Shown here: piece after piece, positions 1 through 61,807 of the stretch
How the letters are laid out: each line of letters starts with the position of its first letter
Position numbering within the stretch: the first letter of the stretch is position 1
Origin: Escherichia phage F13
DNA length: 64,000 bases
Sequence record: OP745617
Direction: 5' to 3' (one strand)
The notes under the pieces: generated by a model
The model's input: the letters and a program-made list of their open reading frames with translations, nothing else
Told to the model about the DNA's origin: nothing
Databases searched by the model: none
Position numbers and translations under genes: made by a program

Positions 1-102
1 GGACTCTCCAAAGAAGAGTTCAGCAGCATTGCCGAAGCAAAGGCATGGCTAAAGGCATTCTACAAGGCCAATCCTAAATTTTATCCAACTAAGGGTGCAT
101 AA
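1..102 (+). CDS. 3' end of upstream gene (partial, hypothetical protein)
   Basis: Open frame from window edge (…GLSKEEFSSIAEAKAWLKAFYKANPKFYPTKGA*) ending at TAA 100-102, overlapping ATG 102 of the next gene. Confidence 0.4.
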   Translation, partial: GLSKEEFSSIAEAKAWLKAFYKANPKFYPTKGA

Positions 103-320
103 TGACCGATAAACAATACGCAGTCGGGCAACGTGACATCGAGCAACTCGACGAGGGCGGTTATTATACACGCCACATCTATGCTATGACTCAAGAAGGA
201 CTTTACAGCAAGTCGGACATCGCCGCTGAACTGGCCCATCGCGACTTGCAAATTGATCTTCTCAAGATAGAAGTGCAGAACTTACGAAACACCCTGTTAA
301 ACACCTGGAGCTTAAAATGA
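102..320 (+). CDS. hypothetical protein (72 aa)
   Basis: ATG start overlapping upstream stop; stop overlaps next gene start (ATGA at 317-320), typical phage translational coupling. Confidence 0.5.
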   Translation: MTDKQYAVGQRDIEQLDEGGYYTRHIYAMTQEGLYSKSDIAAELAHRDLQIDLLKIEVQNLRNTLLNTWSLK

Positions 321-742
321 TACAGCGTTACGACCTGACATATGATGTGGCATCGGACGATTTCGCCGTCACTCCCGTTCCAGAAAGTCATGAAGGACGT
401 TTTGTTGCATATGAGGACTATGAATCACTGCTCAAGCTTAATGAGTCGCTAACAAAAGAGATTGAGCAATACCACGAGCGCATCAAAGTCGCTGAAGATG
501 TTATCAAGCTTTTTAGCGAGGCTGTTGAGAAATACAAGGAGCGCAACGTACCGATTAAGGAGGAAGCGTGGACCGTGTGGCTTGGTGGTGAGAATCCTGC
601 ACCTGGCGAGATTGTTGAATACAAGCTGCGCAATGGAGGTGATAAAGTATTGTCGAGACTTTCTGACCATCTTCACTGGGGTCATATAGGAGCACTCAAA
701 GGCAGCGACATCATTGCTTATCGGGTCGTTAAGGAGGGGTGA
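317..742 (+). CDS. hypothetical protein (141 aa)
   Basis: ORF coupled to neighbours by ATGA overlaps at both ends. Confidence 0.55.
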   Translation: MIQRYDLTYDVASDDFAVTPVPESHEGRFVAYEDYESLLKLNESLTKEIEQYHERIKVAEDVIKLFSEAVEKYKERNVPIKEEAWTVWLGGENPAPGEIVEYKLRNGGDKVLSRLSDHLHWGHIGALKGSDIIAYRVVKEG

Positions 743-1275
743 TGGGTAACGATGCAGGATGGGGCAAGCCGCGATACTCAAAACTTGCCCACTACTTTGA
801 CGACGGCGAGCAAATCAGCTTGTGCGGTAAATTCAACAAAGGCAATACAGAGTTGACCGATGCTCAAGAAATGGAATCAAGTCTGACAATTGGTGATTGC
901 TCTAAGTGCAGAAAGGCATTATATGAGTTATTGACTCTAAGGGGATTGAAAGCGGCAAAATCAAGGGATGAATGGGTCATCAACGTCTGTGAAGGGAATC
1001 CAGAATTGATGGATGAATTGCTGAAAACAGATGCCGTTAATGCCATTTTCAAAAGGCATTATAAAACTTGTATGCGTTACAAGATGAATGATGATATTAT
1101 TTTTATGGTATTATCTTATTCAAGGAGCACAATGGACGTCAAAAAGCTTCGACAATATCGCCACAAGGTCATGTGTGAATTGCGCCGTTTAGGAGTTATT
1201 GTGGATAATAATGTCATTAAAACGGAGTTAAAGAAGCGTGATAAAAGGAATGGTGACTGGAAGGTCAGCGGATAA
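739..1275 (+). CDS. hypothetical protein (178 aa), Cys pairs suggest possible zinc binding
   Basis: ORF with CGKF…CSKC spacing; last gene before the AT-rich element at 1.54-1.99 kb. Confidence 0.5.
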   Translation: MMGNDAGWGKPRYSKLAHYFDDGEQISLCGKFNKGNTELTDAQEMESSLTIGDCSKCRKALYELLTLRGLKAAKSRDEWVINVCEGNPELMDELLKTDAVNAIFKRHYKTCMRYKMNDDIIFMVLSYSRSTMDVKKLRQYRHKVMCELRRLGVIVDNNVIKTELKKRDKRNGDWKVSG

Positions 1276-1539
1276 ATAAACACTGTTTACGTGTTTTGAA
1301 GAATGGAATGTGTGCAATGGGTCGCTTTATGCGGCCTTTTGTCGTTTGGGTCATGTTTTGCTATGGAATAATTATGAGGTTGTGTTTTATTTATTAATTG
1401 TGCGGAAATATTTAGAAATATATATAAACAGGATTGTTAATATTTTAATAGTTTATGGCTATTGGTCCGTGGTGTTTGTTAGATTCTATCTATGGATTGG
1501 ATTTTCTTGGGTCGTGAAACGTGGTTTTGAACACATTTG

Positions 1540-1990
1540 ATACGCCTAAAATACGGTTAAAAATTAAGCGTATCATGGCTGCAGGCCGCGCCGTTCCTGG
1601 ATTCCTCTTTTCCAAATTGGTACACCCTTACGTCATGATACGTCATGGTTTTTTATCCGTATCAGTGTACAACCCTTGCCGCGCCTGGCTTGTACATTAA
1701 TCTTACGGATGATACGGATAAAACTGAGCATCGTTATATATAGAATTCGAAAAATTAATTAACTCCATTTTAAAAACATTTATATTAATTTTTTTCATAT
1801 CCTCATACTTATGTTAATTTATATATTTAACGTATCATCCGTAAGATATAAGTAAAAACAAAGACTTGCGGCAATACGGATGATACGTCATGATACGCTT
1901 CAACCAGCCAGCAGCGGCTAAGTCGTTGATTTGCATAACAAGCGGCAAAAGGGATGGATTTCTTTTATACGTATCAAACAGTACACCACG
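1540..1990. repeat. Composite element A: AT-rich core (about 1735-1830) flanked by inverted repeats aatcttacggatgatacgg (1699-1718) and ccgtatcatccgtaagat (1831-1847), plus extra GGATGATACG-type copies (1629-1665, 1873-1898)
   Basis: Read directly; homologous to element B at 18055-18345 (shared aatcttacggatgatacgga and tatata-gaattc-aaa-ttaatt core). Confidence 0.8.
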
Positions 1991-2062
1991 CACCACGGTC
2001 CGTTATCCATTCAGCAATATGATTTGTGTACGTTTATAGCCATAATGAACATCAATCTGCAC

Positions 2063-2091
2063 TTGAATATAATGTCCATCCATTGTATAAT
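2063..2091 (+). promoter_or_regulatory. sigma70-like promoter with extended -10 (TTGAAT-N17-TGTATAAT) upstream of the TerS-like gene
   Basis: Hexamers and spacing read from sequence; the transcribed leader would contain two AATTTGCACTATG motifs. Confidence 0.4.
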
Positions 2092-2111
2092 TCACACTAT
2101 TAATTTGCACT

Positions 2112-2600
2112 ATGGGATTTTGCACTATGAGTCAAGATTATGTAGCGATGCCTGAAGACTTTGAAGACCCGCGATTCGCAGAGCACAATCAGGCTTTATT
2201 CGATGAGTTCATTGACCTTGTTATTCAGGGTCATGACATGCGCGCAGCTTTTGCACTAGTATTTGGAATGGAAGTTGCAACGGATAACTACACTGGCCAG
2301 CGAATCCTTTGCACGCAACGCAATCCATACTACAAGATGCGCTTCAAAAAGCGTATGGAAGAGATGCCACTCAAGGATTTGTGGAGCGTAAAAGGTGCAA
2401 TTCACAATTTGGTTAAGCTTGTTCGTGATCCAGAAGTCGCGGCGTCAGCCAAGCTTAATGCTATTCGTGAACTGAATATCATCTACGGCATCACGATGAT
2501 TGATGAAAACGGCAATAGTAAAATGGGCCGTTCCATGGACGATTTCTACAAGGATTTTGGAGAGGCGGCCAAAGAAGGTGAGCAATTCTCCCGCCACTAG
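2112..2600 (+). CDS. terminase small subunit-like DNA-binding protein (possible start at 2127)
   Basis: About 160 aa; NQALFDEFIDLVIQGHDMRAAFALVFGM and C-terminal AKLNAIRELNIIYGI resemble TerS (Terminase_2-type) segments; recognised from memory only. Confidence 0.4.
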   Translation: MGFCTMSQDYVAMPEDFEDPRFAEHNQALFDEFIDLVIQGHDMRAAFALVFGMEVATDNYTGQRILCTQRNPYYKMRFKKRMEEMPLKDLWSVKGAIHNLVKLVRDPEVAASAKLNAIRELNIIYGITMIDENGNSKMGRSMDDFYKDFGEAAKEGEQFSRH

Positions 2601-2619
2601 CCAATTTGCACTATAAAAC

Positions 2620-2654
2620 GGCCCTAGAACACATTTTCTCCAATTCTAGGGCCA
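2620..2654. terminator. Hairpin between convergent genes: perfect 10-bp stem GGCCCTAGAA/TTCTAGGGCC, 15-nt loop
   Basis: Inverted repeat read from sequence; no strong T-run, so terminator function is inferred from position. Confidence 0.4.
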
Positions 2655-2714
2655 TCGGTAATACGACGGGGAAGGTTACAAACATAAACGCGTTAGAAAG
2701 TGTATTATTATAAG

Positions 2715-2978
2715 TCATCTTTTAGTCACCTTACGTAACAATTTACGACCTTCAACCGTCCAATCGAACGACTCCACCAGCAGATTCGCACTATAACCTA
2801 AGACGATGCGTCCCTTCTCGTTATCGACCCGCCAACAAGTCTCGAATAGCATTCGATTTGCACTATTAACTATTGCCGCAACTCGCGTAGGATAAGCGCA
2901 ATTTGAACTATGGTCGTAAAGGGATAAGGTGCGACCACTTCCGATGGACAACGTAGCGATGAGAATGAGCGTATTCAT
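2715..2978 (-). CDS. doubtful ORF (87 aa) overlapping three copies of the AATTTGCACTAT motif
   Basis: Has a possible GGTGG RBS, but the motif copies inside suggest the region may be regulatory rather than coding. Confidence 0.2.
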   Translation of the reverse strand: MNTLILIATLSIGSGRTLSLYDHSSNCAYPTRVAAIVNSANRMLFETCWRVDNEKGRIVLGYSANLLVESFDWTVEGRKLLRKVTKR

Positions 2979-3028
2979 AAGCCACCAATTTGCACTATGA
3001 AAAGCGACCCCGAAGGGCCGCCATTCGA

Positions 3029-3655
3029 TTAGATAATCTGGAAGGTATAGGATTTGTTGCCGAACTCAAAGTTCAAGCGCCCAGCTTCCTTAAGCTTCAT
3101 GCGGAAGCGAATGTGCTTGCTATCCGGCAAGCCCAGCACGGCGAACGCTACGCGGACCGATTTGAACTCGCCTACACCCTCGACCATAACGCCGTTACGG
3201 GTGAGACGCTTTTGCGCCACTTCCTTATTATCCCAACTTTTTGCAATACCTTCGCTATTCGAACGGCGATGGGAAGGAGTTCCATTTTGCACTACGCAAT
3301 TTGCACTATCGTTTAGACCGCTCTTAACGAAGGCTTCATACTCTTCGTCGGTCATCGCGTCGAGTTCTTCCTGGGTCGGCTCGGCCTTTTTAACGACCGC
3401 ACGCGCCTTATGCGTTTTTACATCGCTGGACACTTCCTCGCGCGACTTCGCTTCGGGGATGGGCGATTCGTTGGACGGCTCATCGAGCGCGTTTAAGGAC
3501 TCGATTAACGCGATTACGCGAGTCTCGGCGGTACGGCGGTCCGCAAATTTCTTAATCGGCTTCGAACCGGAATTTGCATTATAAAATGCAACGAGGTCGG
3601 CGGTCTTAGTTGCGATAACGTCGCCGCTAGTCGAGAAACGATTTAAGCTAACCAT
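3029..3655 (-). CDS. hypothetical protein (208 aa)
   Basis: AGGAG RBS upstream of ATG at 3655; contains two tandem motif copies on the opposite strand and the TTTGCATT-N4-AATGCAAA palindrome near its 5' end. Confidence 0.6.
   Translation of the reverse strand: MVSLNRFSTSGDVIATKTADLVAFYNANSGSKPIKKFADRRTAETRVIALIESLNALDEPSNESPIPEAKSREEVSSDVKTHKARAVVKKAEPTQEELDAMTDEEYEAFVKSGLNDSANCVVQNGTPSHRRSNSEGIAKSWDNKEVAQKRLTRNGVMVEGVGEFKSVRVAFAVLGLPDSKHIRFRMKLKEAGRLNFEFGNKSYTFQII
3573..3592. promoter_or_regulatory. Palindromic operator-like site TTTGCATT-ATAA-AATGCAAA
   Basis: Perfect 8-bp inverted arms with 4-bp spacer; a dyad version of the AATTTGCA motif. Confidence 0.35.
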
Positions 3656-3735
3656 AATGAACTCCTATTTGTTAGGGCGCTAGGCGCGAAAGAATTTTAT
3701 TAAAGCGCCGCGCACGACGCTCTAAAAATCCTCTC

Positions 3736-4020
3736 TTACGCTTCGACGAGGGAGAAGGTCTCAAATTCTTCTTCGCCCATAACGAGTAAGATGTTACCGA
3801 TTTCGACCGCTTCGAAGAAGTATCCGTTAACGTTTACTTCGAAGGCTTCGCGGTCCGATTCCGGTAACGCCGCGTAAAGTTTAAAAGCCTCGGCGACCGT
3901 TACCCCACCCGCCTCGATGGTCTGGTCTACGTTCGCGGCGTAGACTTCGGATAAAATTTGTTTTACGCCGTAGTTCTCGACGATAGCGTTACGGATGGAA
4001 GAAACGTTAAGAATAGCCAT
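3736..4020 (-). CDS. small early protein, paralog family member A (94 aa)
   Basis: AGGAG RBS; preceded on the minus strand by the conserved promoter/hairpin cassette; MAILNVSSIR…EVYAANVD…VNGYFFEAVEIG aligns with the 4958-5248 product. Confidence 0.6.
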   Translation of the reverse strand: MAILNVSSIRNAIVENYGVKQILSEVYAANVDQTIEAGGVTVAEAFKLYAALPESDREAFEVNVNGYFFEAVEIGNILLVMGEEEFETFSLVEA

Positions 4021-4088
4021 TTTAAACTCCTAGTTGGGAGAGGCGTTAACGACCTATTCGCTAACTCATCCCGTCCCGATATGAGTAC

Positions 4089-4116
4089 ATTATAATATAG
4101 TGTAGAAAAAAGTAAA
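4089..4116 (-). promoter_or_regulatory. sigma70-like promoter (TTTACT-N16-TATAAT) of the conserved early cassette, minus strand
   Basis: Reverse complement of 4021-4128 is nearly identical to the plus-strand cassettes at 4548-4655 and 4851-4957. Confidence 0.5.
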
Positions 4117-4160
4117 GCACTTTTTCGATAAAAATGCGATAAATTATTTTATCTTTTTTC

Positions 4161-4188
4161 TTTACTTCTTCGTACACTCGCGTATACT
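4161..4188 (+). promoter_or_regulatory. sigma70-like promoter (TTTACT-N16-TATACT), diverged copy of the early cassette, divergent to the minus promoter
   Basis: CTTTACTTCTTCGTACACT shared with the other cassettes; followed by a GGGC…GCCC hairpin and a GGGAG RBS. Confidence 0.45.
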
Positions 4189-4244
4189 TGTTTATATCGA
4201 GACGGGCGATGGCCCTTCCTTCTACTAGCATCGGGAGCTTTATT

Positions 4245-4547
4245 ATGACTACTTTAATCTCTTCCATCCTTACTTACGACGAAGACCGTTTAACCGTTCG
4301 CTCTCTTATCGCCGCCGTTAACGCCGAACTAGAATCTAGCGCCATTAAGGTCCGCGCGGTTGCCTTCGTCGGTCTTTCCTTCGACGATATCAAGTACGCC
4401 GAACGTAGCGCCATCCGCTTCGCGAAGACCGACGACGAAGCCGTTACCCTTATCGAGACGGTTACTCCGCGCGGCGAAACGTTAATTATCGTCGAGTATA
4501 TCGACGTAGAAGGCGATAAGGCTTATAAATATTTTATCGCAAAATAA
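4245..4547 (+). CDS. small early protein, paralog family member B (100 aa)
   Basis: ATG at 4245 with GGGAG RBS (the track's 4188 start is a TTG inside the -10 element); N-terminus MTTLISSI resembles the paralogs; 3' two-thirds lies in the tandem duplication. Confidence 0.6.
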   Translation: MTTLISSILTYDEDRLTVRSLIAAVNAELESSAIKVRAVAFVGLSFDDIKYAERSAIRFAKTDDEAVTLIETVTPRGETLIIVEYIDVEGDKAYKYFIAK

Positions 4548-4558
4548 CGAAAAAGTGC

Positions 4559-4587
4559 TTTACTTCTTAGTACACTAAGACTATAAT
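4559..4587 (+). promoter_or_regulatory. sigma70-like promoter TTTACT-N17-TATAAT (cassette copy 1)
   Basis: Near-consensus -10 and 17-bp spacer; followed by the 5' UTR hairpin at 4610-4630 and AGGAG at 4644-4648. Confidence 0.55.
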
Positions 4588-4609
4588 GTTTTATATCGAG
4601 AGGGGATGA

Positions 4610-4630
4610 GGTAGCGAATAGGTCGCTACC
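4610..4630 (+). ncRNA. Conserved 5' UTR stem-loop (GGTAGCGA-ATAGG-TCGCTACC)
   Basis: Perfect 8-bp stem; the minus-strand copy (GTTAGCGA/TCGTTAAC) keeps pairing through a compensatory U-A and a G-U wobble. Confidence 0.5.
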
Positions 4631-4655
4631 CTCCCGACTAACTAGGAGAATATTA

Positions 4656-4850
4656 CGCGCGGTTGCCTTCGTCGGTCTTTCCTTCGACGATATCAAGTAC
4701 GCCGAACGTAGCGCCATCCGCTTCGCGAAGACCGACGACGAAGCCGTTACCCTTATCGAGACGGTTACTCCGCGCGGCGAAACGTTAATTATCGTCGAGT
4801 ATATCGACGTAGAAGGCGATAAGGCTTATAAATATTTTATCGCAAAATAA
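4656..4850 (+). pseudogene. Duplicated 3' fragment of gene 4245-4547 lacking a start codon
   Basis: Second repeat unit encodes RAVAFVGLSF…KYFIAK in frame, but the position matching the ATG of gene 4958 reads ACG (4655-4657). Confidence 0.45.
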
Positions 4851-4861
4851 CGAAAAAGTGC

Positions 4862-4890
4862 TTTACTTCTTAGTACACTAAGACTATAAT
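4862..4890 (+). promoter_or_regulatory. sigma70-like promoter TTTACT-N17-TATAAT (cassette copy 2, drives gene 4958-5248)
   Basis: Identical to copy 1 (offset 303 bp); hairpin at 4913-4933, AGGAG at 4947-4951. Confidence 0.55.
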
Positions 4891-4957
4891 GTTTTATATC
4901 GAGAGGGGATGAGGTAGCGAATAGGTCGCTACCCTCCCGACTAACTAGGAGAATATT

Positions 4958-5248
4958 ATGATCACTTTATCCGCTATCCGTGCCGCTCGCGTCGAAACTT
5001 CCGAAAACTCTAACGTATTTGGCGAAACCTTAGAGAGCGTTTATCTCTCTAACGTTGACGCGATTATCGAGTCTATTTATGAGCCGATCAACTTCCTCGA
5101 CCTTTACAAGTATCGCGATGAGGACATCGTGTCCTACCGCGTAACGATTAACGGCTTCGTTTATACGATTACCGAAATCGGCGGCGAATATCTCGCTGTA
5201 CCGCAACTCGGCGGCGAAGTAACTTACTTTAAAATCGTAAGCCTTTAA
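4958..5248 (+). CDS. small early protein, paralog family member C (96 aa)
   Basis: ATG with AGGAG RBS; clear similarity to the 3736-4020 product (IR-A-VE, VY-NVD-IE, NG-xxE-EIG). Confidence 0.6.
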   Translation: MITLSAIRAARVETSENSNVFGETLESVYLSNVDAIIESIYEPINFLDLYKYRDEDIVSYRVTINGFVYTITEIGGEYLAVPQLGGEVTYFKIVSL

Positions 5249-5259
5249 GGAGAAGAAAA

Positions 5260-5469
5260 ATGATTAATATGAATAACTCTCTTAACGCGCGCGCCCATCG
5301 CACCGCCGTCATCGATATGTTCCGTGAGCTTAAGGACTTATGCGATAATATGAACGCGATGTTATCCATCGGCGGCTGGGGATACGAAGAAGAAGTTAAA
5401 TATGCGGTTATGCGTCGCCGTCGCGATAACGTCCTTGGGCAAATTAAACGCGCCGGATTATTCCTTTAA
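5260..5469 (+). CDS. hypothetical small protein (69 aa, basic)
   Basis: AAGGAG RBS 8 nt upstream of ATG; followed by an intrinsic terminator. Confidence 0.55.
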   Translation: MINMNNSLNARAHRTAVIDMFRELKDLCDNMNAMLSIGGWGYEEEVKYAVMRRRRDNVLGQIKRAGLFL

Positions 5470-5495
5470 TTATAATCAACCACCGTTACTAATAG

Positions 5496-5517
5496 GCCGC
5501 GCTTAGTCGCGGCTTTT
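5496..5517 (+). terminator. Rho-independent terminator (GCCGCG-cttagt-CGCGGC followed by TTTTCTT)
   Basis: GC stem plus T-run directly after stop of gene 5260-5469. Confidence 0.6.
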
Positions 5518-5638
5518 CTTCGTCCCTATCTCGGTGCGCTCCTACGCGAAAACTCCTTTATCCTTCCCTTCGTCGTCGCATAATCTTCGTCGATATGCGC
5601 CTTAGTTCGCATAACAGGTATTACGTTAAATGGAGAAC

Positions 5639-5715
5639 ATCGCGTAAGTCCTTGTTTTATATAGACACCTATATCGGACCGTTAGGGCGGGTCGCGTAAG
5701 TCGTTGTTTTATAAA
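5639..5715. repeat. Direct repeat pair (A/G)TCGCGTAAGTC(C/G)TTGTTTTATA (5639-5663 and 5691-5715)
   Basis: Two 25-nt near-identical copies 52 bp apart in a 700-bp ORF-free region. Confidence 0.6.
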
Positions 5716-5838
5716 GGCGCAAAACTTTCCCTTCGTTCCGAACTAAAACGAGGAATATGCCGACCCTTCGTCCGAAAATAGTACGCATGCGAAATTACAT
5801 GCATCTAGAATAATCCCCACAGATATTATCCTACACGC

Positions 5839-5903
5839 AATCATTCGCTTTCGAATCATTATGCTTCATATTATTATGCGTCGAATCATTCGCTTTCGAA
5901 TTG
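5839..5903. repeat. Direct repeat pair ATCATTCGCTTTCGAAT (5840-5856 and 5885-5901)
   Basis: Read directly; each unit contains a TTCGAA palindrome. Confidence 0.6.
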
Positions 5904-5991
5904 TAACGCTGGAAACTGTAACGGCGATTGATTATTGCGTTCGTGTGGTTTTTATGGCATGGGTCTTTTGGTGCGTTTTGCTACTTGATGG

Positions 5992-6103
5992 AATTTGCGG
6001 TACACTAATCAAAATACGACACATTTAGTCTACTAACTTTTCAAAGAAAAAGTCCTGGACAGTACCGTACTATTTTGTACCCACAGGAAATTTGCAGTAC
6101 ACT
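5992..6103 (+). repeat. Variant motif pair AATTTGC(G/A)GTACACT (5992-6006 and 6088-6103)
   Basis: Shares AATTTGC with the 2.1-3.6 kb motif family and GTACACT with the early promoter cassette. Confidence 0.5.
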
Positions 6104-6183
6104 CCTGCGCGCGGCAGGCAAAATAAAGGGCCGCACCAAGCGACCCACGATTCACGATTCACGGTTAAAGCAACATCCACCCA

Positions 6184-6564
6184 CTATTCACTCTTATGGG
6201 CATCACCAAATCCATCAGCAATCTGGCTGATCAACGACTCAATGGACACAGTTTTACCAATTGATCGAGCGGTTATGGCGAGCATATTATCAATCAAACC
6301 ATGATTGACACAATACTCTGGAGATTTAGAATCATCTTCAGAACAACCAAAAAGCTGGTCGCGCAGACTTTCAAGAGAACGCTCAATATTTTCCAACTTC
6401 TCTTCTAAATCGGATTGGCGACGTAAAACCCATGTTAAGTCTCGGTTGCCGACTTCCAACCCATCAGAATAGCAAGGTGGAGCGTCAATTTTGATGCTGG
6501 AACCAAAAGCAGTGCCGCTGCCTTTAGTATAAGTATGGCTCATAGAATCATTTTTATTTGACAT
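6184..6564 (-). CDS. hypothetical protein (126 aa from ATG 6564)
   Basis: Last gene of the minus-strand block; internal ATG with weak AAGG RBS chosen over the track start. Confidence 0.45.
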   Translation of the reverse strand: MSNKNDSMSHTYTKGSGTAFGSSIKIDAPPCYSDGLEVGNRDLTWVLRRQSDLEEKLENIERSLESLRDQLFGCSEDDSKSPEYCVNHGLIDNMLAITARSIGKTVSIESLISQIADGFGDAHKSE

Positions 6565-6661
6565 ATCATTACCTTTAATATTTGGGTGATTAACAATAAC
6601 TATAATAAAGCCGCATAGCGCGGCATTCAAATCGATTTATTAATTGTGACGATTGGATTCA

Positions 6662-6856
6662 TCAATCGATACCAACTGAGCCGATGTGCTGAAAGAACTC
6701 TGAATAAACTTCCTTCCAGTACTTACGCGCTGCTTTCTGGGCTTGTCCTTTGCGCTTGAAGCTTTTGCCTTGAAAGATGAAACGGTCGCTTGTCGCGCGA
6801 TACTCCACCACACCTTCCAGCCATTGTAAGAATGCTACTGATTCATTTTTATTCAT
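6662..6856 (-). CDS. hypothetical small basic protein (64 aa)
   Basis: GAGGT RBS 5 nt upstream of ATG. Confidence 0.5.
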   Translation of the reverse strand: MNKNESVAFLQWLEGVVEYRATSDRFIFQGKSFKRKGQAQKAARKYWKEVYSEFFQHIGSVGID

Positions 6857-6863
6857 TTCAACC

Positions 6864-7259
6864 TCAATATTTTAATAAGAAAGCACCCAACCAACTTTCC
6901 TCAACCTCGCGGCCAGTAGCCACACGGTCGGTCTTGGCTATGGGTCTGGATTCGCCGCAGGGCAACCCGTCTTGTAGTTGTGTACTATTGCCAATTCTCA
7001 CCAGAACCTTTCCATCAGGGTCGATATAAGCGCGACAACCCATGATTTCGAGTCGTTGTAGACACTGGCGAATCGTTTTCAGCTTCTCACCGGACCGGAT
7101 AGAGCGCGGTCGCGACCGCTGACCGTTCTTATTTACTGTACGCTTGAAGACCGGAATATCATTGGTGCGTTGCGGCTTGGGTCGGTAGTAGGCTTCTTCG
7201 CCAGGAGTCGCACCTGGCGTCAATTCGCGCTTGAGCGCCTTTTCAATATCAATGATCAT
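6864..7259 (-). CDS. hypothetical protein (131 aa from ATG 7259)
   Basis: Start placed at MIIDIEK, just downstream of the stop of the small upstream ORF (coupling); the track's N-terminal extension overlaps other ORFs. Confidence 0.45.
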   Translation of the reverse strand: MIIDIEKALKRELTPGATPGEEAYYRPKPQRTNDIPVFKRTVNKNGQRSRPRSIRSGEKLKTIRQCLQRLEIMGCRAYIDPDGKVLVRIGNSTQLQDGLPCGESRPIAKTDRVATGREVEESWLGAFLLKY

Positions 7260-11446: not shown

Positions 11447-12907
11447 ATGAATAAAATATTAACACATAATTGGAAATTCATGTACCAGTTGAATCCTGCT
11501 TTAAAAGAAGTCTGGAAGACAAAAGCGCGATACAAAGTAATATACGGCGGTCGTGCATCTTCCAAATCGCACGATGCCGCTGGTTTTGCTATTTATTTGG
11601 CGGCAAACTTCAAATTAAAATTCCTTTGCGTTCGACAATTCCAGAACAAAATTTCTGAATCTGTATATACTCTATTAAAAGACAAAATAGAGATTTCTGA
11701 TTTCAAAGATGAGTTCAATTTATTAAAGAACTCTATTGAACATAAAAGAACTAAATCTGAATTTCTATTTTACGGTATCGCACGTAACGTTGATGAAATT
11801 AAATCAACAGAAGGTGTTGACGTCCTTTGGCTGGAAGAAGCGCACGCGCTTACTGAAGAACAGTGGGACATTATTGAGCCGACAATCCGTAAAGAAGGGT
11901 CCGAAATATGGATCATCTTTAACCCCGATGAAGAGGCCGATTTTGTCTACCAAAACTTTGTTATGCGACCGCCGAAGAATGCCATTGTTAAAAAGATAAA
12001 CTGGCAAGACAATCCATTTTTGTCGCAAACGATGCTGGACGTTATTGCAGGCATGTACGAGCGCGACCCGAAAAAGGCAGAGCACGTTTATGGCGGCGTG
12101 CCGAAGACTGGCGGCGATAAATCTGTAATCAACCGCGCATTCGTTAAGGCCGCGCTTAATCTCCACAAACACCCTACGCTGGGATGGAGTTTGTCAGGGT
12201 CTAACCGTATAGGCTTTGACGTAGCGGACGATGGCGACGACCTTAACGCCACTGCATTCGTTACAGGAAACGTATTGCGCGGCATCAAGACATGGGAAGG
12301 TCTGGAAGATGAATTGTTAAAATCGGCAAGCGGAGTTTGGAAAGATGCGCTTACATTTGGCGCTTCTATAACTTATGACGCCATCGGTGTCGGCGCTTTT
12401 GCTGGTTCAAAATTTGATGAACTGAACGAGTATGCAATACATGAAAATCCATCATTTCCAAGAATCGAATTTAATGCGTTCAATGCGCAAGGGTCTGTTG
12501 ATGATCCTGATGACGTTTTTCTTGAATTACCACACGTTGAAATACTCAATAAAGACCATTTCGCAAACATAAAAGCGCAAAAGTGGACTGAAATTGCAGA
12601 GAGATTCAGAAAGACATACGAATATGCAACTGGGCAAGCCGTATATCCGACTGATGAGTTGATTTCAATCGACACCGATGGCATACCAGAACTTGGAATT
12701 CCAGCTTGGACTACTGAAGAGATTGAGACGTTTCTTTTTGAGATGTCAGCGCCGCGCAAAGATACGTCTGTTCTTGGCAAGTTCAAAGTTGAATCTAAAA
12801 AGGATATGGCAAAGCGTGGAGTCAAATCACCTAACAAAGCGGACGCGGCAATCATGGCATTAATGAAACCAATCGTTGCAGCATCCGGCTTCTTCTCTAA
12901 CCTTTAA
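11447..12907 (+). CDS. terL: terminase large subunit (alternative start 11480)
   Basis: Walker A YKVIYGGRASSKSH, Walker B-like VDVLWLEEAH, size 486 aa and position at the head of the morphogenesis module. Confidence 0.85.
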   Translation: MNKILTHNWKFMYQLNPALKEVWKTKARYKVIYGGRASSKSHDAAGFAIYLAANFKLKFLCVRQFQNKISESVYTLLKDKIEISDFKDEFNLLKNSIEHKRTKSEFLFYGIARNVDEIKSTEGVDVLWLEEAHALTEEQWDIIEPTIRKEGSEIWIIFNPDEEADFVYQNFVMRPPKNAIVKKINWQDNPFLSQTMLDVIAGMYERDPKKAEHVYGGVPKTGGDKSVINRAFVKAALNLHKHPTLGWSLSGSNRIGFDVADDGDDLNATAFVTGNVLRGIKTWEGLEDELLKSASGVWKDALTFGASITYDAIGVGAFAGSKFDELNEYAIHENPSFPRIEFNAFNAQGSVDDPDDVFLELPHVEILNKDHFANIKAQKWTEIAERFRKTYEYATGQAVYPTDELISIDTDGIPELGIPAWTTEEIETFLFEMSAPRKDTSVLGKFKVESKKDMAKRGVKSPNKADAAIMALMKPIVAASGFFSNL

Positions 12908-18054: not shown

Positions 18055-18345
18055 AGTTTTATACGTATAATGACGTATCATCCGTATCAAGTAAGTTGTT
18101 GTTTTCAAAAGAATCTTACGGATGATACGGATGATACGCGTTGCCGCCGTACTATATAGGAATTCAAATAAATTAATTTAAAATTATATATCTAATTTAA
18201 TTTTATTTTTTTATAAACTCTTATATATATGAAAAGTATCCGTATCATCCGTATCATCCGTAGCACACCAGTGATAGCGCGGCTTATACACCGATACGGA
18301 TAAAAATACGCCTCATTTTATCCGTATCATCCGTATCACACTAAT
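18055..18345. repeat. Composite element B: AT-rich core (about 18153-18236) flanked by inverted repeats TACGGATGATACGGATGATACG (18117-18139) and CGTATCATCCGTATCATCCGTA (18241-18262), extra copies at 18072-18091 and 18316-18340
   Basis: Read directly; homologous to element A. Confidence 0.8.
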
Positions 18346-18395: not shown

Positions 18396-18424
18396 TTGCC
18401 TAAGTTTTTTTCATTAGATATAAT
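18396..18424 (+). promoter_or_regulatory. sigma70-like promoter TTGCCT-N17-TATAAT upstream of the scaffold/capsid genes
   Basis: Located between element B and ATG 18454. Confidence 0.4.
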
Positions 18425-18453
18425 ACACAATACTTATTTGAGGGTGGATGCGA

Positions 18454-19869
18454 ATGCAAACGGCACGCGAAATTGACAAAAATGGATTCTTGACGATTAT
18501 GGGTTGTCCGATTTCGTCATTTGGCATTTTTGATTATTCTGCTGGTCAAGTTGGTCTTGATGGTGATCCGAATCGCATCGTAAAAGTCTATCGCCCTGAG
18601 TCAGCGGTGAAAGACCCCGAAGCGATAGATTCATTCAAAAATATCCCTTTCATCGACAATCACGAAATGCTTTCTGGATTTGAAGGTGATGAGGATAACA
18701 CAGCACCCGAAGAGTATGGCGTTGATGGCGTTCTGACTGGCAATGTTTATTATGACAAGCCATGGATGCGCGGCGACCTTAAAGTGTTTAGCCGTCGTCT
18801 GAAGAAGGCCATTGATTCTGGAAAGGTTGACTTGTCTTTGGGCTATGACTGTGAATTCATCATACAGTCTGGAGAGTTTGACGGGCAGCCGTATGAAGTG
18901 GTGCAGACAACTCTTCGCGGCAACCACATTGCTCTCGTGGACGTTGGTCGAGTACCAGGTGCACGGGTGCTGGATGGTCGTTGCTTTGACCATCTTTGTT
19001 TGACGACTGTAACACCATCCAACGAGGATTTAGACATGCCAAAACCGTTAAAAGGTAAAGCGCGTGATAATGCTGTTGAACAGCTGAAATCACTGATCCC
19101 TGCGCTCGAACAATTTCTGAACGAAGAGAGTACTGAAGCTGCTCATCAGGACGAAGTTGAAGTGAAAGCAGAAGAGAAGGACTCAACCGAAAATCGTGAA
19201 GAAGTAATGGTTGATCCAGAAGTCAAGGCAGAAGCAGAAGAAACCCCAGAAGGTGAAGAGAAGTTTGAAGTTGAAACTGAATCTCACGCTGGCGGCGAAC
19301 TTCCGCAATTGATCAGCCAAATCGAAGCACTTATTGCAAAACTGAAAGGTGGCGCGGTAGGTGATGAAGAAGAAGTTGAAGCCGAAGTCAAAGACGAAGA
19401 AGAAGTTGAAGTCAAGGCTGAAGATGTATCACCTTGCGACAAAGCTGAAGATGTGGTTAGCGGCCTGCAAAACAGCAACGTAAAGGGGGCTTCGGTCGAA
19501 AAAGATGACAAACCGACAAAAGCGGCGAAAGCGTCGCCAGGTCCAGCAAAAGGGGAACACTCAATGGCATCTGATTCAGCAGTTGCTGCTTTCTACGCTG
19601 ATTCTGCTCGTAAGAATAGCCTCTACCAGCGCCTGTCTAAAGTTGTTGGTGCCTTTGATCATGCAACTATGGACTCCAAGTCCGTAGCGAAATATGGCGC
19701 TAAAAAGTTAGGCTTGAAGTGCGTTGATGGTGCTGAGTTTGACGTGGTGGATAATTATCTGCGCGGCGTTGAGCACGGTCAGAAACAGCGTGTAGTCGCA
19801 AAACAAAAGGCCGCTGCGGATTCTGCAGCAACTGACGAAGCATTTGAAGCTTGGTTGAAAGGGGAATAA
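18454..19869 (+). CDS. putative scaffolding/prohead-processing protein with acidic central region
   Basis: GGGTGG RBS then ATG 18454; long Glu/Val/Ala-rich acidic stretch typical of scaffolds; position before capsid genes. Confidence 0.45.
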   Translation: MQTAREIDKNGFLTIMGCPISSFGIFDYSAGQVGLDGDPNRIVKVYRPESAVKDPEAIDSFKNIPFIDNHEMLSGFEGDEDNTAPEEYGVDGVLTGNVYYDKPWMRGDLKVFSRRLKKAIDSGKVDLSLGYDCEFIIQSGEFDGQPYEVVQTTLRGNHIALVDVGRVPGARVLDGRCFDHLCLTTVTPSNEDLDMPKPLKGKARDNAVEQLKSLIPALEQFLNEESTEAAHQDEVEVKAEEKDSTENREEVMVDPEVKAEAEETPEGEEKFEVETESHAGGELPQLISQIEALIAKLKGGAVGDEEEVEAEVKDEEEVEVKAEDVSPCDKAEDVVSGLQNSNVKGASVEKDDKPTKAAKASPGPAKGEHSMASDSAVAAFYADSARKNSLYQRLSKVVGAFDHATMDSKSVAKYGAKKLGLKCVDGAEFDVVDNYLRGVEHGQKQRVVAKQKAAADSAATDEAFEAWLKGE

Positions 19870-53945: not shown

Positions 53946-54941
53946 TTATTTATTAGCAATATAAGCAAATTTTTGATAGTTATTTGCTTTGATGAGTTTT
54001 TCAACTTCAACAAGGTCATGAGCAACGTCATCAAGCAAAATGTTTCGCCAAGTAGCAAAGCGACCGACACTAAATACGTTCAAATCCATGGTCAGCTGTA
54101 GGAGTAGAGCGTGTCGCAAGTCTTTCGGAATGTCGACAATCTTGCCATACTTCTGGTCGACCTTTTCAACTTCTTCGAGATCGATGTCACTCCATGATAG
54201 GCCAAAGGCTGTCAATACTTCGTCAACTTCTGCACGCAACTTAATGTCACGGTAACGAGTAATGCCGCCAGCGGCTTCAACTGCGGCTTCACTTACGCTA
54301 ACCAAAGGAATTGTTTCAATGATCAGTGTGTCACCAGTGATTGATGCGCGGTAAGTTCTGACGGAGTAGTCAGGAAAGTAAATGGTTTGATACAGTGCAC
54401 ACTTGCGCTTAATCTTAAAGCGGTAAACACGAATGTTTGCCTTATCGAATGAGAAATCAATCTTTTGATCAATCCCAGCAAGCTTCATCATGACTGGCAG
54501 CGGCGACGTGTTGATGATTGGCGTCTCGCTATAGCCGCAAAGAGTATCAACAGGAGTATTAAAGAATATGCGGTCACCCAGTTTGTCGACAAGCTGATCA
54601 TAAAAGTCATCAGGCGCAATATAACGCGTTGCAGTTTTAAGCTTCATGATTGAGCGGCTACCGAATTGATTAGTGACCTTCATGGAATACATATTGGCAA
54701 GGTTGATTGGGCAATGGTCGTGGTAGTAGTTGCCGCGAAAATACACAGCCTTGTCAACTGTCACGGCCTTAAAAGGGATTCCGGTAATACGGCTTACTTC
54801 TTCGCCGCGAAATCGTAGCAAAGCCTTGTGCTGTGGCGCTCGTTCCCCTGCTTCGTACACAATGGAGTTCGGGAAGTGACACGCGGTAATAAGTCCTGCC
54901 AAACCGCCGCCGATAATCATTACAGGTTGTTTCATGTTCAT
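53946..54941 (-). CDS. FAD/NAD(P)-binding Rossmann-fold oxidoreductase
   Basis: N-terminal dinucleotide-binding motif VMIIGGGLAGLITA; 331 aa. Confidence 0.55.
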   Translation of the reverse strand: MNMKQPVMIIGGGLAGLITACHFPNSIVYEAGERAPQHKALLRFRGEEVSRITGIPFKAVTVDKAVYFRGNYYHDHCPINLANMYSMKVTNQFGSRSIMKLKTATRYIAPDDFYDQLVDKLGDRIFFNTPVDTLCGYSETPIINTSPLPVMMKLAGIDQKIDFSFDKANIRVYRFKIKRKCALYQTIYFPDYSVRTYRASITGDTLIIETIPLVSVSEAAVEAAGGITRYRDIKLRAEVDEVLTAFGLSWSDIDLEEVEKVDQKYGKIVDIPKDLRHALLLQLTMDLNVFSVGRFATWRNILLDDVAHDLVEVEKLIKANNYQKFAYIANK

Positions 54942-57744: not shown

Positions 57745-58827
57745 ATGGCTAGTTTAAGAGAAGAAGCAAAAATAATTGAAGAGTTTTTAACAGAACTCCA
57801 GAGAGGCATCCCAGAAGATGAGCGCGTCATGACGGTGTTTGCTCCTGAAGCAACGGTGCAGACTGACGAGCGCGGAAAGAAGATTAACAGCAGCTTCTGG
57901 CCTAAGCCTTGGAAGTTGGGCAAGCCGCTCATGCAGCACCAAAACGGCTATGCTTGCATCAGTTCAATGCGTAAGTCTCCCAACCCAAAGACGGGTGAGA
58001 TGCGATACTGGCGTACAGAGTCGGCCTTTGGTCACGGTATGGCGATGATGGTCGACGACATCGGTCACGGTAAAGGGTCCAAAGGCGATTTAGATTTGGA
58101 ATTCTTTTTTGAGCGACTGAAGCCGACTGTCATCGTCGAGACTTCACCGAACAACCACCAGCTTTGGTACTTCTTTAAAGAACCGATTGACCATCTTATT
58201 CAGTTCAAAGCGTTCCTTGGGTCTTTCGTTAACATGGTACTCAAGAAGGGCGGCGACAACACGATTAAAGACGTAACGCGCGTGGGCCGTGTTCCTGGGT
58301 GCATCAATAACAAGCGTGTGACTCACGACGGCCCCTATAAATATGTCGATGAGAACGGCGACCCGTTCCGCTGCCGACTTGTCCATGCAGACTACTCCTT
58401 GCGCTACACCATCGAAGACATTTGTCACGCATTTGGCTTTCACGTCGTCATGCCGCAAAAGCGTGAGATTCAAATTGACGTCGATGAATACAAGTATGAT
58501 GCCGTTTGGTATAAAATAGCCCAGCAGATTCTGGCGCGCAACAAGATGGGTGAAGGGTCTGATGGCGACGTCATCGAGAATATGTCAGGCAAGTGCCGCA
58601 TAATCTGTCCTTGGGGTGAAGAGCACACCAACGGCGACCCGTATGGCGCGTACTTTCGCGGCCCTATCCCTGGTGCAGAACATGAATTTGTGTTCGGTTG
58701 CGCCCACGACTGTCACCGGAAAGGGGAAGGCAAGAAAGGTTGGACTGCTTTTGTTGAAGCAATCGTCATGCCTTATATTGAGAATCAACTTGACATGATA
58801 AATCGTCGTGCAGGTGGCATAAAATAG
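57745..58827 (+). CDS. DNA primase, archaeo-eukaryotic primase (AEP/prim-pol) type with C-terminal zinc ribbon
   Basis: MAMMVDDIG, SPNNHQLWYFF and RVPGCIN resemble AEP motifs; C-terminal CRIICPW…CAHDCH; AAGGAAAG RBS. Confidence 0.55.
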   Translation: MASLREEAKIIEEFLTELQRGIPEDERVMTVFAPEATVQTDERGKKINSSFWPKPWKLGKPLMQHQNGYACISSMRKSPNPKTGEMRYWRTESAFGHGMAMMVDDIGHGKGSKGDLDLEFFFERLKPTVIVETSPNNHQLWYFFKEPIDHLIQFKAFLGSFVNMVLKKGGDNTIKDVTRVGRVPGCINNKRVTHDGPYKYVDENGDPFRCRLVHADYSLRYTIEDICHAFGFHVVMPQKREIQIDVDEYKYDAVWYKIAQQILARNKMGEGSDGDVIENMSGKCRIICPWGEEHTNGDPYGAYFRGPIPGAEHEFVFGCAHDCHRKGEGKKGWTAFVEAIVMPYIENQLDMINRRAGGIK

Positions 58828-59326: not shown

Positions 59327-59590
59327 ATGGGCGCTTTCCGTAACGAGTTCACCTGGAACGTTACCAGCAATCTCTCGACTTGTCCTAACTGTGCAAGCGA
59401 TGTTATCAAGGTGCGGCAGCATCGCAACGCGGAGGAAGGTGCCTGGGAAGATGGCGACCTTGTAGAGTGCCAGTGCTGCTCTCATGAAGGTGTTGTTGAG
59501 CTTCAAGCTGGTGAAGGTTGCCCACCAGCAGAGCGCACAGCACGCGTTGAATGGGATGCAACAGACTCCATTGGTGATCCTCAACAGTAA
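59327..59590 (+). CDS. small zinc-ribbon-like protein (87 aa)
   Basis: AGAGGTG RBS, ATG 59327; CPNCASD…CQCCSH cysteine pairs. Confidence 0.45.
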   Translation: MGAFRNEFTWNVTSNLSTCPNCASDVIKVRQHRNAEEGAWEDGDLVECQCCSHEGVVELQAGEGCPPAERTARVEWDATDSIGDPQQ

Positions 59591-60136: not shown

Positions 60137-61807
60137 ATGTCAATTAATAATGACAATCTTCCAGAGGATACAGGTGATGAATTTGGTGCAATCTTTGACG
60201 AAATTCAAGATGCAGGCGTTTCGGAAGAAATGCAGGCAGCAGAGCAGCAAGGCACCAGAGCTAAAATCAGCCTTCAACATAAAGCCGTTGAAAAAGATTC
60301 AGAGCGCATGGAATGCTACGGTGAAGAAGACTTGGTTGAAAGAGCACGCTTGCTCGCCTCACTTCAGGTAATCAAGTTCCCTCACTACAAGCCGACCAAA
60401 GATGACTTCGTTCTACAGGCAGACCGGACGAGTGACATGAACCGTTATGCGGTTTTCGACGCGTTGTTTGATAAGGGAAGTGGCGTTGTTCCATTCCCTC
60501 ACAAAGATACTTTTCGTGGGCGCTTAGTCGACCATCGCGGCGAAACATTCACCGACCGTACTTTGGAAGTCACAGAGATAGTTGCCGCTGTCGACGCAGC
60601 AGGATTGTCCAACCCAAACTCACGTCAGGTCGCTCAATCCTATAAGGAATGGGCCATGCGTTATCAGCGCGACGACCTGATGGACTTCTTCTACAAGAAG
60701 CTGCCTGAATGGGACGGTACTGCGCGCATCGAGAAATACCTTATCGAGCTATTCCGACCGTTCGATACAGAGTTAAACCGACAAATCGGTGTGTATTTTT
60801 GGCTATCGCTCTACAACCGCCTGACCAACCCTGGCTGTCAAGCGCCAATTTCTATCGCGCTCATCGGCGGCCAGAACGCAGGGAAGAGTTATTTTAGCAA
60901 GCTGCTTTGCGAAGCTATTATGAACGACCGCCACGCAACACCGATTCCGTTGAACTTAGCCGCGCAAAACTTCAACCCGTTCTTGCGAGCTATTACGGGT
61001 CGCTCAATTATCGCGAACGTTGGCGAGATGACAGGCTTTAAAAAGGCCGACATCGAAAACATGAAAGCATTCCTGACTAAGACGGAAGATGACCTGGACT
61101 TCAAATTTGAAGATACGCAGGTTAAACCACGCCAGTGGATTGCGATAATGGACGGCAACGAATACGCAGGTATGCAGCGTGATGACACGGGCAACCGTCG
61201 TGTGTATCCTATCTTTGTTGGCCAACTCGCCGACAAGGACGGGCAACCGAACTGGTCGAAAGACTTCCAAGCTGACCTTTCCACTTTGAAAGAAGACGTT
61301 TGGCAATTGATGGCTGAGTGCGCTGCTTGGATGGAGAAGCACGGCGAAGCAGGTTACAACGCGTTTGTTGGTGAAACATCTCGCATGCTCACTGAGTTTA
61401 GTAAGAACGAAATGGAACGTGCACGCGGCGTTATTCGTGATGAGATGGTTGACAACGACCTTGTTGAAGTCGTCATTACCGCGCCTTATGACCGACATCA
61501 CAGCGGACGCTGGCACATAACCAGTGGTGCTATTGCTATGGGATTCAGAGCGAAGTGCGGCAAGTCGCCTTTCTCTCGTACCCTTGCGCCGCACATGTCG
61601 AAGCTTGGTTTTGAGCCTGCAACCTATCGCAACCAGCGCGGTTACTTTACGCCGCTGATTAAGAATGAAGCAGGAGAATACATTTCTGATTTGATGACCA
61701 TCTTAGCGTATCTTATCCGCGATGAGTCTGACCCTGAAGATATTGAATTCTTGAAGAAGGTTATTGAGCGTAAACGTTCTTTGGGAAGAGATAAGGATGA
61801 ATTCTGA
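60137..61807 (+). CDS. VirE/D5-like primase-associated SF3 helicase
   Basis: AGGAGG RBS; P-loop ISIALIGGQNAGKSYFSKL in the C-terminal half; 556 aa. Confidence 0.55.
   Translation: MSINNDNLPEDTGDEFGAIFDEIQDAGVSEEMQAAEQQGTRAKISLQHKAVEKDSERMECYGEEDLVERARLLASLQVIKFPHYKPTKDDFVLQADRTSDMNRYAVFDALFDKGSGVVPFPHKDTFRGRLVDHRGETFTDRTLEVTEIVAAVDAAGLSNPNSRQVAQSYKEWAMRYQRDDLMDFFYKKLPEWDGTARIEKYLIELFRPFDTELNRQIGVYFWLSLYNRLTNPGCQAPISIALIGGQNAGKSYFSKLLCEAIMNDRHATPIPLNLAAQNFNPFLRAITGRSIIANVGEMTGFKKADIENMKAFLTKTEDDLDFKFEDTQVKPRQWIAIMDGNEYAGMQRDDTGNRRVYPIFVGQLADKDGQPNWSKDFQADLSTLKEDVWQLMAECAAWMEKHGEAGYNAFVGETSRMLTEFSKNEMERARGVIRDEMVDNDLVEVVITAPYDRHHSGRWHITSGAIAMGFRAKCGKSPFSRTLAPHMSKLGFEPATYRNQRGYFTPLIKNEAGEYISDLMTILAYLIRDESDPEDIEFLKKVIERKRSLGRDKDEF

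Follow-up and report, generated by a model that had tools for sequence, protein, structure and literature searches.

Between a block of early genes and the small terminase gene terS, the window (i.e., the entire stretch of 64,000 nucleotides analyzed here) contains a noncoding region in which short GATACG-type units are arrayed on both sides of an AT-rich core, herein designated element A; a second such element, B, precedes the gene encoding the head maturation protease (Table 1). No open reading frame with family support was found between positions 1275 and 2112, and no Rfam family matched anywhere in the window. Across region 1300-2300, the DNA shows 99.9% identity to Escherichia phage vB_EcoM_SP13 and 97.8% to vB_EcoM_WFC, with all 28 matching records being Wifcevirus-type E. 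coli/Shigella myophages of 67-72 kb. Such phages are related to Pseudomonas PB1-like phages (PMC11990801).

For comparison, closer relatives outside this set were found via their TerS homologues as three metagenome contigs (L012, L013, and L014), the TerS proteins of which are 69%, 51%, and 47% identical, respectively, to that of the window; for Serratia phage MTx (Myosmarvirus), the corresponding value is 36%. Genome termini were taken from GenBank records and PhageTerm annotations.

Table 1. Coordinates of features in and around elements A and B (positions in the window; a slash within sequence marks the cut)
Feature	Position	Strand	Details
Terminator-like hairpin	1319-1337	+	Ends upstream early-gene block; left limit of the noncoding region with A
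A, outer left sites	1538-1577		TGATACGCC 1538-1546 (+); ATACGG 1552-1557 (+); GCGTATCAT 1568-1576 (-)
A, middle left sites	1629-1664		TACGTCATGATACGTCATG 1629-1647 (+), 10-bp tandem; TTTTATCCGTATCA 1651-1664 (-)
A, inner left arm	1700-1716	+	ATCTTACGGATGATACG; exact inverted repeat of 1831-1847; within 21-mer 1699-1719
A, AT-rich core	1717-1830		114 bp, 19% GC
Terminase cut (very likely position)	1766/1767	+	...AATTAACTCC/ATTTTAAAAAC...; 1767 as first base of virion genome and of DTR
Direct terminal repeat (DTR)	1767-5968	+	4202 bp in the window, placed by homology
A, inner right arm	1831-1847	-	CGTATCATCCGTAAGAT
A, right sites	1875-1898	+	TACGGATGATACGTCATGATACGC; two GATACG units, 10 bp apart
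A, outer right site	1963-1978	-	TTTTATACGTATCAAA
Sigma70-like promoter, terS-proximal	2063-2091	+	TTGAAT-17-TATAAT; positional counterpart of TSS P041 in phage 14-1
terS	2127-2600	+	157 aa; alternative ATG at 2112
TerL	11447-12907
B, left arrays	18062-18138		CGTATCATCCGTATCA 18074-18089 (-); TACGGATGATACGGATGATACG 18117-18138 (+), 9-bp tandem
B, AT-rich core	18139-18240		About 20% GC; without the AACTCC of A's cut site
B, right arrays	18241-18338		GATACGGATAAAA at 18293 (+); TTTTATCCGTATCATCCGTATCA 18316-18338 (-)
Sigma70-like promoter, protease-proximal	18396-18424	+	TTGCCT-17-TATAAT; counterpart of TSS P014 in phage 14-1
Head maturation protease gene	18448-19869	+	Downstream of B
VapE/D5-like (SF3-type) helicase	60137-61807	+	Pfam PF05272, 1.6e-28; PHROG "DNA primase/helicase"

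A sequence-only reading of this DNA had described exact inverted arms around an AT-rich core of ~110 bp, and both features bear scrutiny: the arms are exact inverted repeats over 17 nt, and the core measures close to the length given. Its right arm had been read as "ccgtatc..." where the sequence is "acgtatc..."; base 1830 is A, for which reason the match stops short of 18-19 nt. At 85% identity, the arms extend to 27 nt (1690-1716 and 1831-1857). Further sites noted at 1629-1665 and 1873-1898 are real with slightly narrower limits, and beyond these we located additional sites at both outer edges of the element. GATACG units thus stand to the left of the core at 1539+, 1569-, 1637+, 1658-, and 1711+, and to its right at 1831-, 1882+, 1892+, and 1970-, i.e., short repeated motifs flank the cleavage region (see below) on both sides. 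As concerns sequence architecture only, these arrays adjoin an AT-rich segment as they would in an iteron-type origin. Nowhere in the 64 kb is a 100-bp stretch richer in AT than in the two cores, where the 100-bp GC content falls to 0.14 (B) and 0.15 (A) against a window mean of 0.46 (standard deviation 0.069). Other short motifs also occur here. GTACAC forms two +/- pairs flanking the A core (1620/1665 and 1981/2026) and is concentrated within and close to the DTR: of 17 matches in the window, 10 fall within 1620-6980, with 5973-6009 and 6097 of particular note. GCGGCAA boxes, entertained as a conserved specific feature of the element, were set aside given 40 occurrences across the window.

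The motif GATGATACG occurs 10 times in the window against 0.42 expected, a count reached in 0 of 100 shuffles, with 9 of the 10 lying within A or B; similarly, TGATACG is found nine times in A, eight times in B, and six times in the remaining 63 kb. B (18062-18338) is the only other cluster in the window, the complete genome of phage Bas98 contains these two clusters only, and the ~4.5 kb of genome absent from the window holds no such cluster. The motif is therefore confined to two places, as opposed to recurring at similar density genome-wide. The proposal of a homologous second copy ~16.5 kb from A is likewise borne out by whole-window searches, in which 1699-1760 aligns to 18112-18178 (79% over 67 columns, E = 1e-5) and 1831-1897 aligns to the reverse complement of 18064-18129 (E = 8e-7). 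An exact 21-mer, AATCTTACGGATGATACGGAT, is common to A (1699-1719) and B, and the left part of the A core (TATATAGAATTC..AAATTAATT) is homologous to that of B. Within B, the 22 nt of 18117-18138 recur exactly in inverted form at 18241-18262 (-), with GATACG-type units to the left of the core at 18074-, 18083-, 18124+, and 18133+, and to its right at 18241-, 18250-, 18293+, 18323-, and 18332-. All 28 Wifcevirus records carry B at an identity of at least 95%, with the arrays and core almost invariant, the latter being kept base by base. No GenBank record begins at B, nor does any record or report place a terminus there.

In WFH (L008) and Mansfield (L026), the sequence at the left arm of A and the adjoining edge of its core, GATACGGATGATACGCGTCGCCGCTATACTTTATA, is nearly that of B at 18123-18160 and unlike A of the window, which suggests that recombination or gene conversion may have occurred between the two elements. 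This B-like left arm is also the reason why only 12 of the 28 records match the window to the left of ~1700. Contigs L013, L014, and L015 break inside the arrays, with the 68,520-bp IMG/VR contig L015 beginning exactly at the left arm of B (1-22). As these ends fall in arrays, we rejected them as physical ends; they are likely assembly breaks at the 21-mer, its presence in both A and B accounting for their recurrence.

Complete E. coli genomes searched for satellites or other elements with these arrays, whose existence would have spoken for a pac function, gave no match. A 16-mer scan of GTDB, discarded as evidence for array-bearing satellites, returned scattered single matches and one likely mis-binned contig; by our own estimate, a 16-mer is expected by chance a few hundred times in a collection of that size. 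The contig in question, CAMVAV010000006.1 (L037, 68,084 bp), carries the array 16-mer; its assignment to an "uncultured Clostridia bacterium" MAG is probably the misplacement of a phage contig.

The gene immediately downstream of A, previously described as "TerS-like," encodes a true small terminase. A profile of its product with six homologues (n = 7) matched the TerS of phage E217 (PDB 7UXE) with E = 1.5e-45, Foldseek returned the same structure as top match for the AlphaFold model, and the annotators of Mansfield had called its copy TerS via HHpred. No Pfam domain was detected in the protein, leaving its identification to rest on the PDB profile search. Three direct repeats (CACACTAT, TTTGCACTATG, and TTTGCACTATG), ~15 nt apart, occupy 2092-2129 between the promoter and the terS start codons, and may constitute an operator or a means of translational control for terS; CTGCACTA-type boxes recur ahead of terS in L012, L013, and L014. 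The replication genes form an unusual set for a myophage, with a RepB-type primase (57745-58827; PF16793) encoded in the window apart from the VapE/D5-like helicase (60137-61807), while related records add DnaB-like and Dda-like helicases as well as a Pol III alpha-type polymerase.

The records of WFC, WFH, SP13, Ro157lw, and Mansfield (n = 5, from at least four groups) all start at AACTCC/ATTTT, which corresponds to window position 1767. Since these deposited left ends map to this base, the left end of the virion genome lies in the A core, and we place it with high confidence at 1766/1767. The cut sits 7 bp from the center of symmetry of the A arms (1773.5) and 360 bp to the left of the terS start. 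In the Mansfield record, a "direct terminal repeat predicted by PhageTerm" is annotated at 1-3673 (PMC6753283); in WFC, position 1 equals position 68689, yielding a 3784-bp direct terminal repeat, and identical terminal copies of 3533-3899 bp are present in four records. The right end of the repeat, ...GGGTCTTT/TGGTGCG... at 5968, is common to SP13, Ro157lw, WFH, and Mansfield (the last by PhageTerm), and is found 81 bp further on in WFC, at 6049. The SP13 record has an extra A at the junction of unique region and DTR.

No GATACG array is present at the right end of the DTR. The sequence TACACTAAT occurs 32 bp outside this end, with similar motifs 36-48 bp outside the right ends of Pantoea phage Kyle and MTx; GTACAC/TACACTAAT near the right end could be either a right-end signal or the -10 element of an early promoter (TTGCTA-17-TACACT). 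Overall, the genomes of Wifcevirus, MTx, and Kyle end at fixed positions on both the left and the right as opposed to forming the permuted series of processive headful packaging, and A would therefore act in a pac-like manner but within a DTR mode of packaging. In carrying one sequence at both of their fixed termini, these genomes are as DTR phages of the T7/T5 kind; the kilobase-long direct repeats in the records do not agree with a lambda-type cos arrangement, in which staggered nicks leave cohesive single-stranded ends and terminal repeats are lacking.

The same layout recurs in other lineages. Of the metagenome contigs (in which the A-type element alone was seen), L012 carries the element upstream of terS with the motif GATACGT and retains AACTCC/ATTTT; the motif is ACGGATA in L013 and AATACGG/C in L014. 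For MTx, the DTR was assigned by PhageTerm to 1-3566 (PMC6588376). Joining the end and start of the MTx record reconstitutes an A-type element with ACTTTTCG/CGAAAAGT repeats and puts the terminus within its core, with terS following after 376 bp; these repeats recur in a homologous element of the B type, situated upstream of the head protease gene. In Kyle (Kylevirus), a 3603-bp DTR is present twice in the record, the terminus is in the core of the A-type element 356 bp upstream of terS, and the A repeats (GGTTATT and ATATCCGAA) reappear in a B element ahead of the protease gene; this B retains a cut-site-like sequence.

In PB1/JG024 (Pbunavirus), A- and B-type elements with GGTAATTTGG/GGAAATTAGG repeats occupy the same two places. 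The putative pac site that the authors of JG024 put at 59,376 (PMC10913387) falls in the core of its A-type element, and the PS44 record, which looks rearranged and was used for its start position only, starts one base after this point. In three further Pbunavirus records, terS is 616-619 bp from the record start, as in PS44; judged by terS distance as opposed to sequence, these probably start where PS44 does. A mapped terminus or putative pac site is thus located within the A core in four genera (Wifcevirus, Myosmarvirus, Kylevirus, and Pbunavirus), in each of which a B-type element lies upstream of the head protease gene. Xanthomonas phage XcP1 has one AT-rich element, flanked by GCGGC boxes (54500-54900), directly after its primase/helicase gene and 3.1 kb before terS, with no B-type element before the protease gene; XcP1 and other Carpasinavirus records all begin at terL, a convention, and hence carry no terminus information.

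Across the four genera, the repeat motif differs from one to the next yet is identical in A and B within each. This co-variation leads us to read the arrays as protein-binding sites, with one protein for both elements, and represents our strongest evidence that the arrays may be sites of a single protein. The sequence-only reading had offered a packaging site, a replication origin, and a regulated late promoter as possible roles for A. The first of these is directly supported by the left end in the A core (both as deposited and as derived by PhageTerm) and by the adjacent gene being a genuine terS; on balance, A is probably a pac-type site for packaging initiation and left-end cleavage, with its arrays as the recognition platform, and with B binding the same protein without being a terminus.

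According to this packaging model, terminase would cut concatemeric replicated DNA at 1766/1767, about midway between the inverted GATGATACG-type arrays, so as to generate a left chromosome end at the first base of the ~4.2-kb direct terminal repeat, with packaging then proceeding rightwards through terS. The arrays, in which tandem units follow each other every 9-10 bp and blocks of such units alternate in orientation to the left and right of the cut, would serve as a sequence-specific docking platform for placement of the nuclease, allowing the latter to cut the easily deformed AT-rich DNA between them at a fixed position. B would be a paralogue of A, bound by the same protein but not used as a terminus. 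We infer that the array binder is most likely the ring-shaped small terminase TerS, a candidate because its gene is adjacent, its family evolves fast, and the ring spacing fits the tandem units; the steering of the cut by this binding and the role of B are inferred too, whereas the sequence architecture, terminus position, TerS identity, and conserved A/B co-variation across genera are shown. The solved E217 TerS is a decameric ring, for which a review that, as read, does not name the DNA used reports no appreciable DNA binding in vitro (PMC9611059). By rough estimate, the subunits of such a decamer would meet wrapped DNA approximately every 10 bp, fitting the 9-10-bp tandems.

Several observations run against the packaging-site interpretation. 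B shares its arrays with A and has a nearly invariant core homologous to that of A, yet no record or report places a terminus there, and a conserved second copy is not predicted by a pure pac model. The cut-site-like sequence in the B element of Kyle also weighs against it, as does XcP1, where the helicase gene, and not terS (3.1 kb away), borders the element. Further counterpoints are the lack of appreciable DNA binding by E217 TerS in vitro and the derivation of the termini from GenBank records and PhageTerm annotations.

The main rival is replication, owing to the existence of the uncut second copy and to the helicase gene abutting the A-type element in related genera. Herein, A and B would be twin origins, with the arrays acting as iterons for the VapE/D5-like SF3 helicase, which would work together with the RepB-type primase, and the core serving as the segment to be unwound; the cut in the A core would stem either from an overlap of pac and origin or from a coupling of origin firing to DTR formation. 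The layout is typical of an origin (inverted arrays flanking a ~100-bp AT-rich core, in two copies sharing one motif), both replication proteins are encoded, and in MTx, PB1/JG024, and XcP1, the A-type element comes directly after the helicase gene. Moreover, the window, Bas98, and XcP1 contain no alternative AT-rich or iteron cluster, and precedents for such an arrangement exist in P4 (ori/crr), SPP1 (oriL/oriR), and SaPI (ori). The C-terminal ~120 residues of the helicase are its most divergent part: the protein is 78% identical overall between the window and L012 with a looser C-terminus, and its alignment with that of MTx is lost after approximately residue 506. A search with the C-terminal 147 residues returned no homologues, and the single-sequence model of this domain (pLDDT 44) was too poor for use.

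Twin origins leave as a coincidence that the mapped terminus or pac site lies within the A core in four genera. In addition, the helicase gene of the window is ~8 kb from A and that of Kyle is likewise not adjacent, the base-by-base conservation of the B core exceeds what simple meltability would need, and GC skew gives no origin signal. (GC/AT skew was discarded as an indicator, as it follows gene orientation and transcription.) Taken together, we consider twin origins possible but on the unlikely side.

A less probable scenario, to which we give only a small share of our confidence, is that A and B function as a pair, via either TerS synapsis or twin origins, linking packaging to a distant locus through one protein. 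In a first version, TerS rings bound at A and B would synapse in a readiness check akin to the T4 "twin-pac" scheme, with the cut being licensed at A only. In a second, A and B would both be origins, and firing at A would re-replicate the adjacent 4 kb to yield two copies of the DTR, with terminase cutting the left end on one copy and the right end on the other; if true, this would be a built-in answer to the old question of how phages with long DTRs duplicate their repeat. Either version, if true, would constitute a lineage-specific DNA-binding protein link maintained from Pbunavirus to Wifcevirus.

More doubtful still is a purely regulatory role, whereby a phage DNA-binding regulator on the arrays of A and B would time the expression of the head protease-scaffold-capsid operon as well as that of terS, with the terminus in A being a separate matter; we regard this as improbable. 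Each element does sit between a terminator-like hairpin and a sigma70-like promoter facing a + strand late gene, and in Pbunavirus phage 14-1, TSS P040 (59399, +) lies in the A right arm with GGTAATTTGG repeats between its -35 and -10; terS has P041 as its proximal promoter, and the protease gene has P014. However, 8-9 sites spread over 300-450 bp around a 100-bp core far exceed the needs of a promoter operator, no 14-1 TSS is mapped in either core or in the B arms, the phage-specific promoter motif of 14-1 (CTGGG) is unrelated, and the DTR genes yielded no candidate for a regulator. Sigma70-like matches in the window are solely the proximal ones, downstream of each element, and a promoter within the cores was rejected on the basis of the 14-1 TSS table. 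The late-promoter option of the sequence-only reading is thus left with weak support, from the sigma70-type starts of 14-1 at the A right arm and just downstream of each element, and without any in the cores. Finally, that the A/B resemblance survives from a past duplication or gene conversion, with B functionless, is scarcely credible: the B-like left arm of A in WFH-type phages does point to sequence exchange, but B is near invariant across the Wifcevirus records, and in each of four genera a B-type element with the motif of that lineage occupies the corresponding place.

Public sources already give the DTR coordinates and the pac position of JG024. The array-flanked architecture, the orthology of headful and DTR sites, the lineage-specific motifs, and the conserved twin were not found in the literature searched, and a search for descriptions of origins or repeats in PB1-like phages gave no result; neither the conserved twin nor the DTR context appears to have been described. 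How small terminases recognize viral DNA is an unsettled question, and the structurally solved E217 TerS family has no known DNA target (PMC9611059). This family now gains concrete candidate targets, namely the GGTAATTTGG-type arrays at the JG024 pac site, the GATGATACG arrays in Wifcevirus, and the other motifs of Myosmarvirus and Kylevirus. As the lineage motifs amount to natural specificity swaps, binding and specificity are directly testable. The conserved uncut twin B in turn points to either pac-overlapping twin origins or two-site control of packaging. On a practical level, knowledge of the exact left end matters for the rebooting and engineering of therapeutic Pbunavirus and Wifcevirus phages.

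Known packaging and replication systems each share some aspects of this arrangement. The terminal repeat of T7 is 160 bp, with pacB/pacC signals and involvement of RNA polymerase. Concatemer-junction processing in T7/T3 resembles the situation here in its fixed ends and in a direct terminal repeat that is duplicated during maturation, although to our knowledge neither an array-flanked AT-rich core nor a twin element is present in those phages. In P1, pac spans ~160 bp at the start of the gene for the small subunit, with short repeats (Dam-methylated TGATCA/G hexamers) on both sides of a central region of terminase cutting, from which headful packaging proceeds processively. A likewise has repeats flanking a central cut region beside a small terminase gene; it differs from P1 pac in its fixed ends, 3.5-4.2-kb DTR, 9-bp units in alternating blocks, and second uncut copy. 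Replication systems offer a different parallel. P4 and SPP1 have two distant origin copies bound by one initiator, which is an SF3-type helicase in P4 and SaPI, and P4 ori/crr, SPP1 oriL/oriR, and SaPI ori are like A/B in having repeated sites next to or flanking an AT-rich segment. We know of none among these paired or iteron-type origins that coincides with a packaging cut.

In SPP1, TerS contacts both sides of the cut at pac (pacL-pacC-pacR), located next to terS, as summarized in PMC9611059. The layout of flanking sites beside terS is thus shared with A, at which contact of TerS with the arrays is a candidate property; SPP1 differs in its headful packaging, its lack of any known twin element, and its unrelated motifs. 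The review cited also recounts the twin-pac synapsis model for T4, in which pac-like sites in gene 16 and gene 19 are proposed to be paired by TerS rings (PMC9611059). As in this model, A and B represent two homologous and putative terminase-recognition sequences per genome; the T4 sites, however, are short, intragenic, and ~3 kb apart, whereas A and B are intergenic, extend over 300-450 bp, and are 16.5 kb apart.

The closest counterparts are the JG024 pac site and E217 TerS (7UXE), which are orthologous to A and TerS of the window. As far as read, the papers on these two (PMC10913387 and PMC9611059) make no mention of element B or of the arrays flanking the core. JG024 is reported to package circularly permuted DNA by a headful mechanism (PMC10913387), in contrast to the DTR of Wifcevirus, Myosmarvirus, and Kylevirus. 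An orthologous site shared by a reported headful phage and three DTR genera thus provides a system in which to study how the mode of packaging changes.
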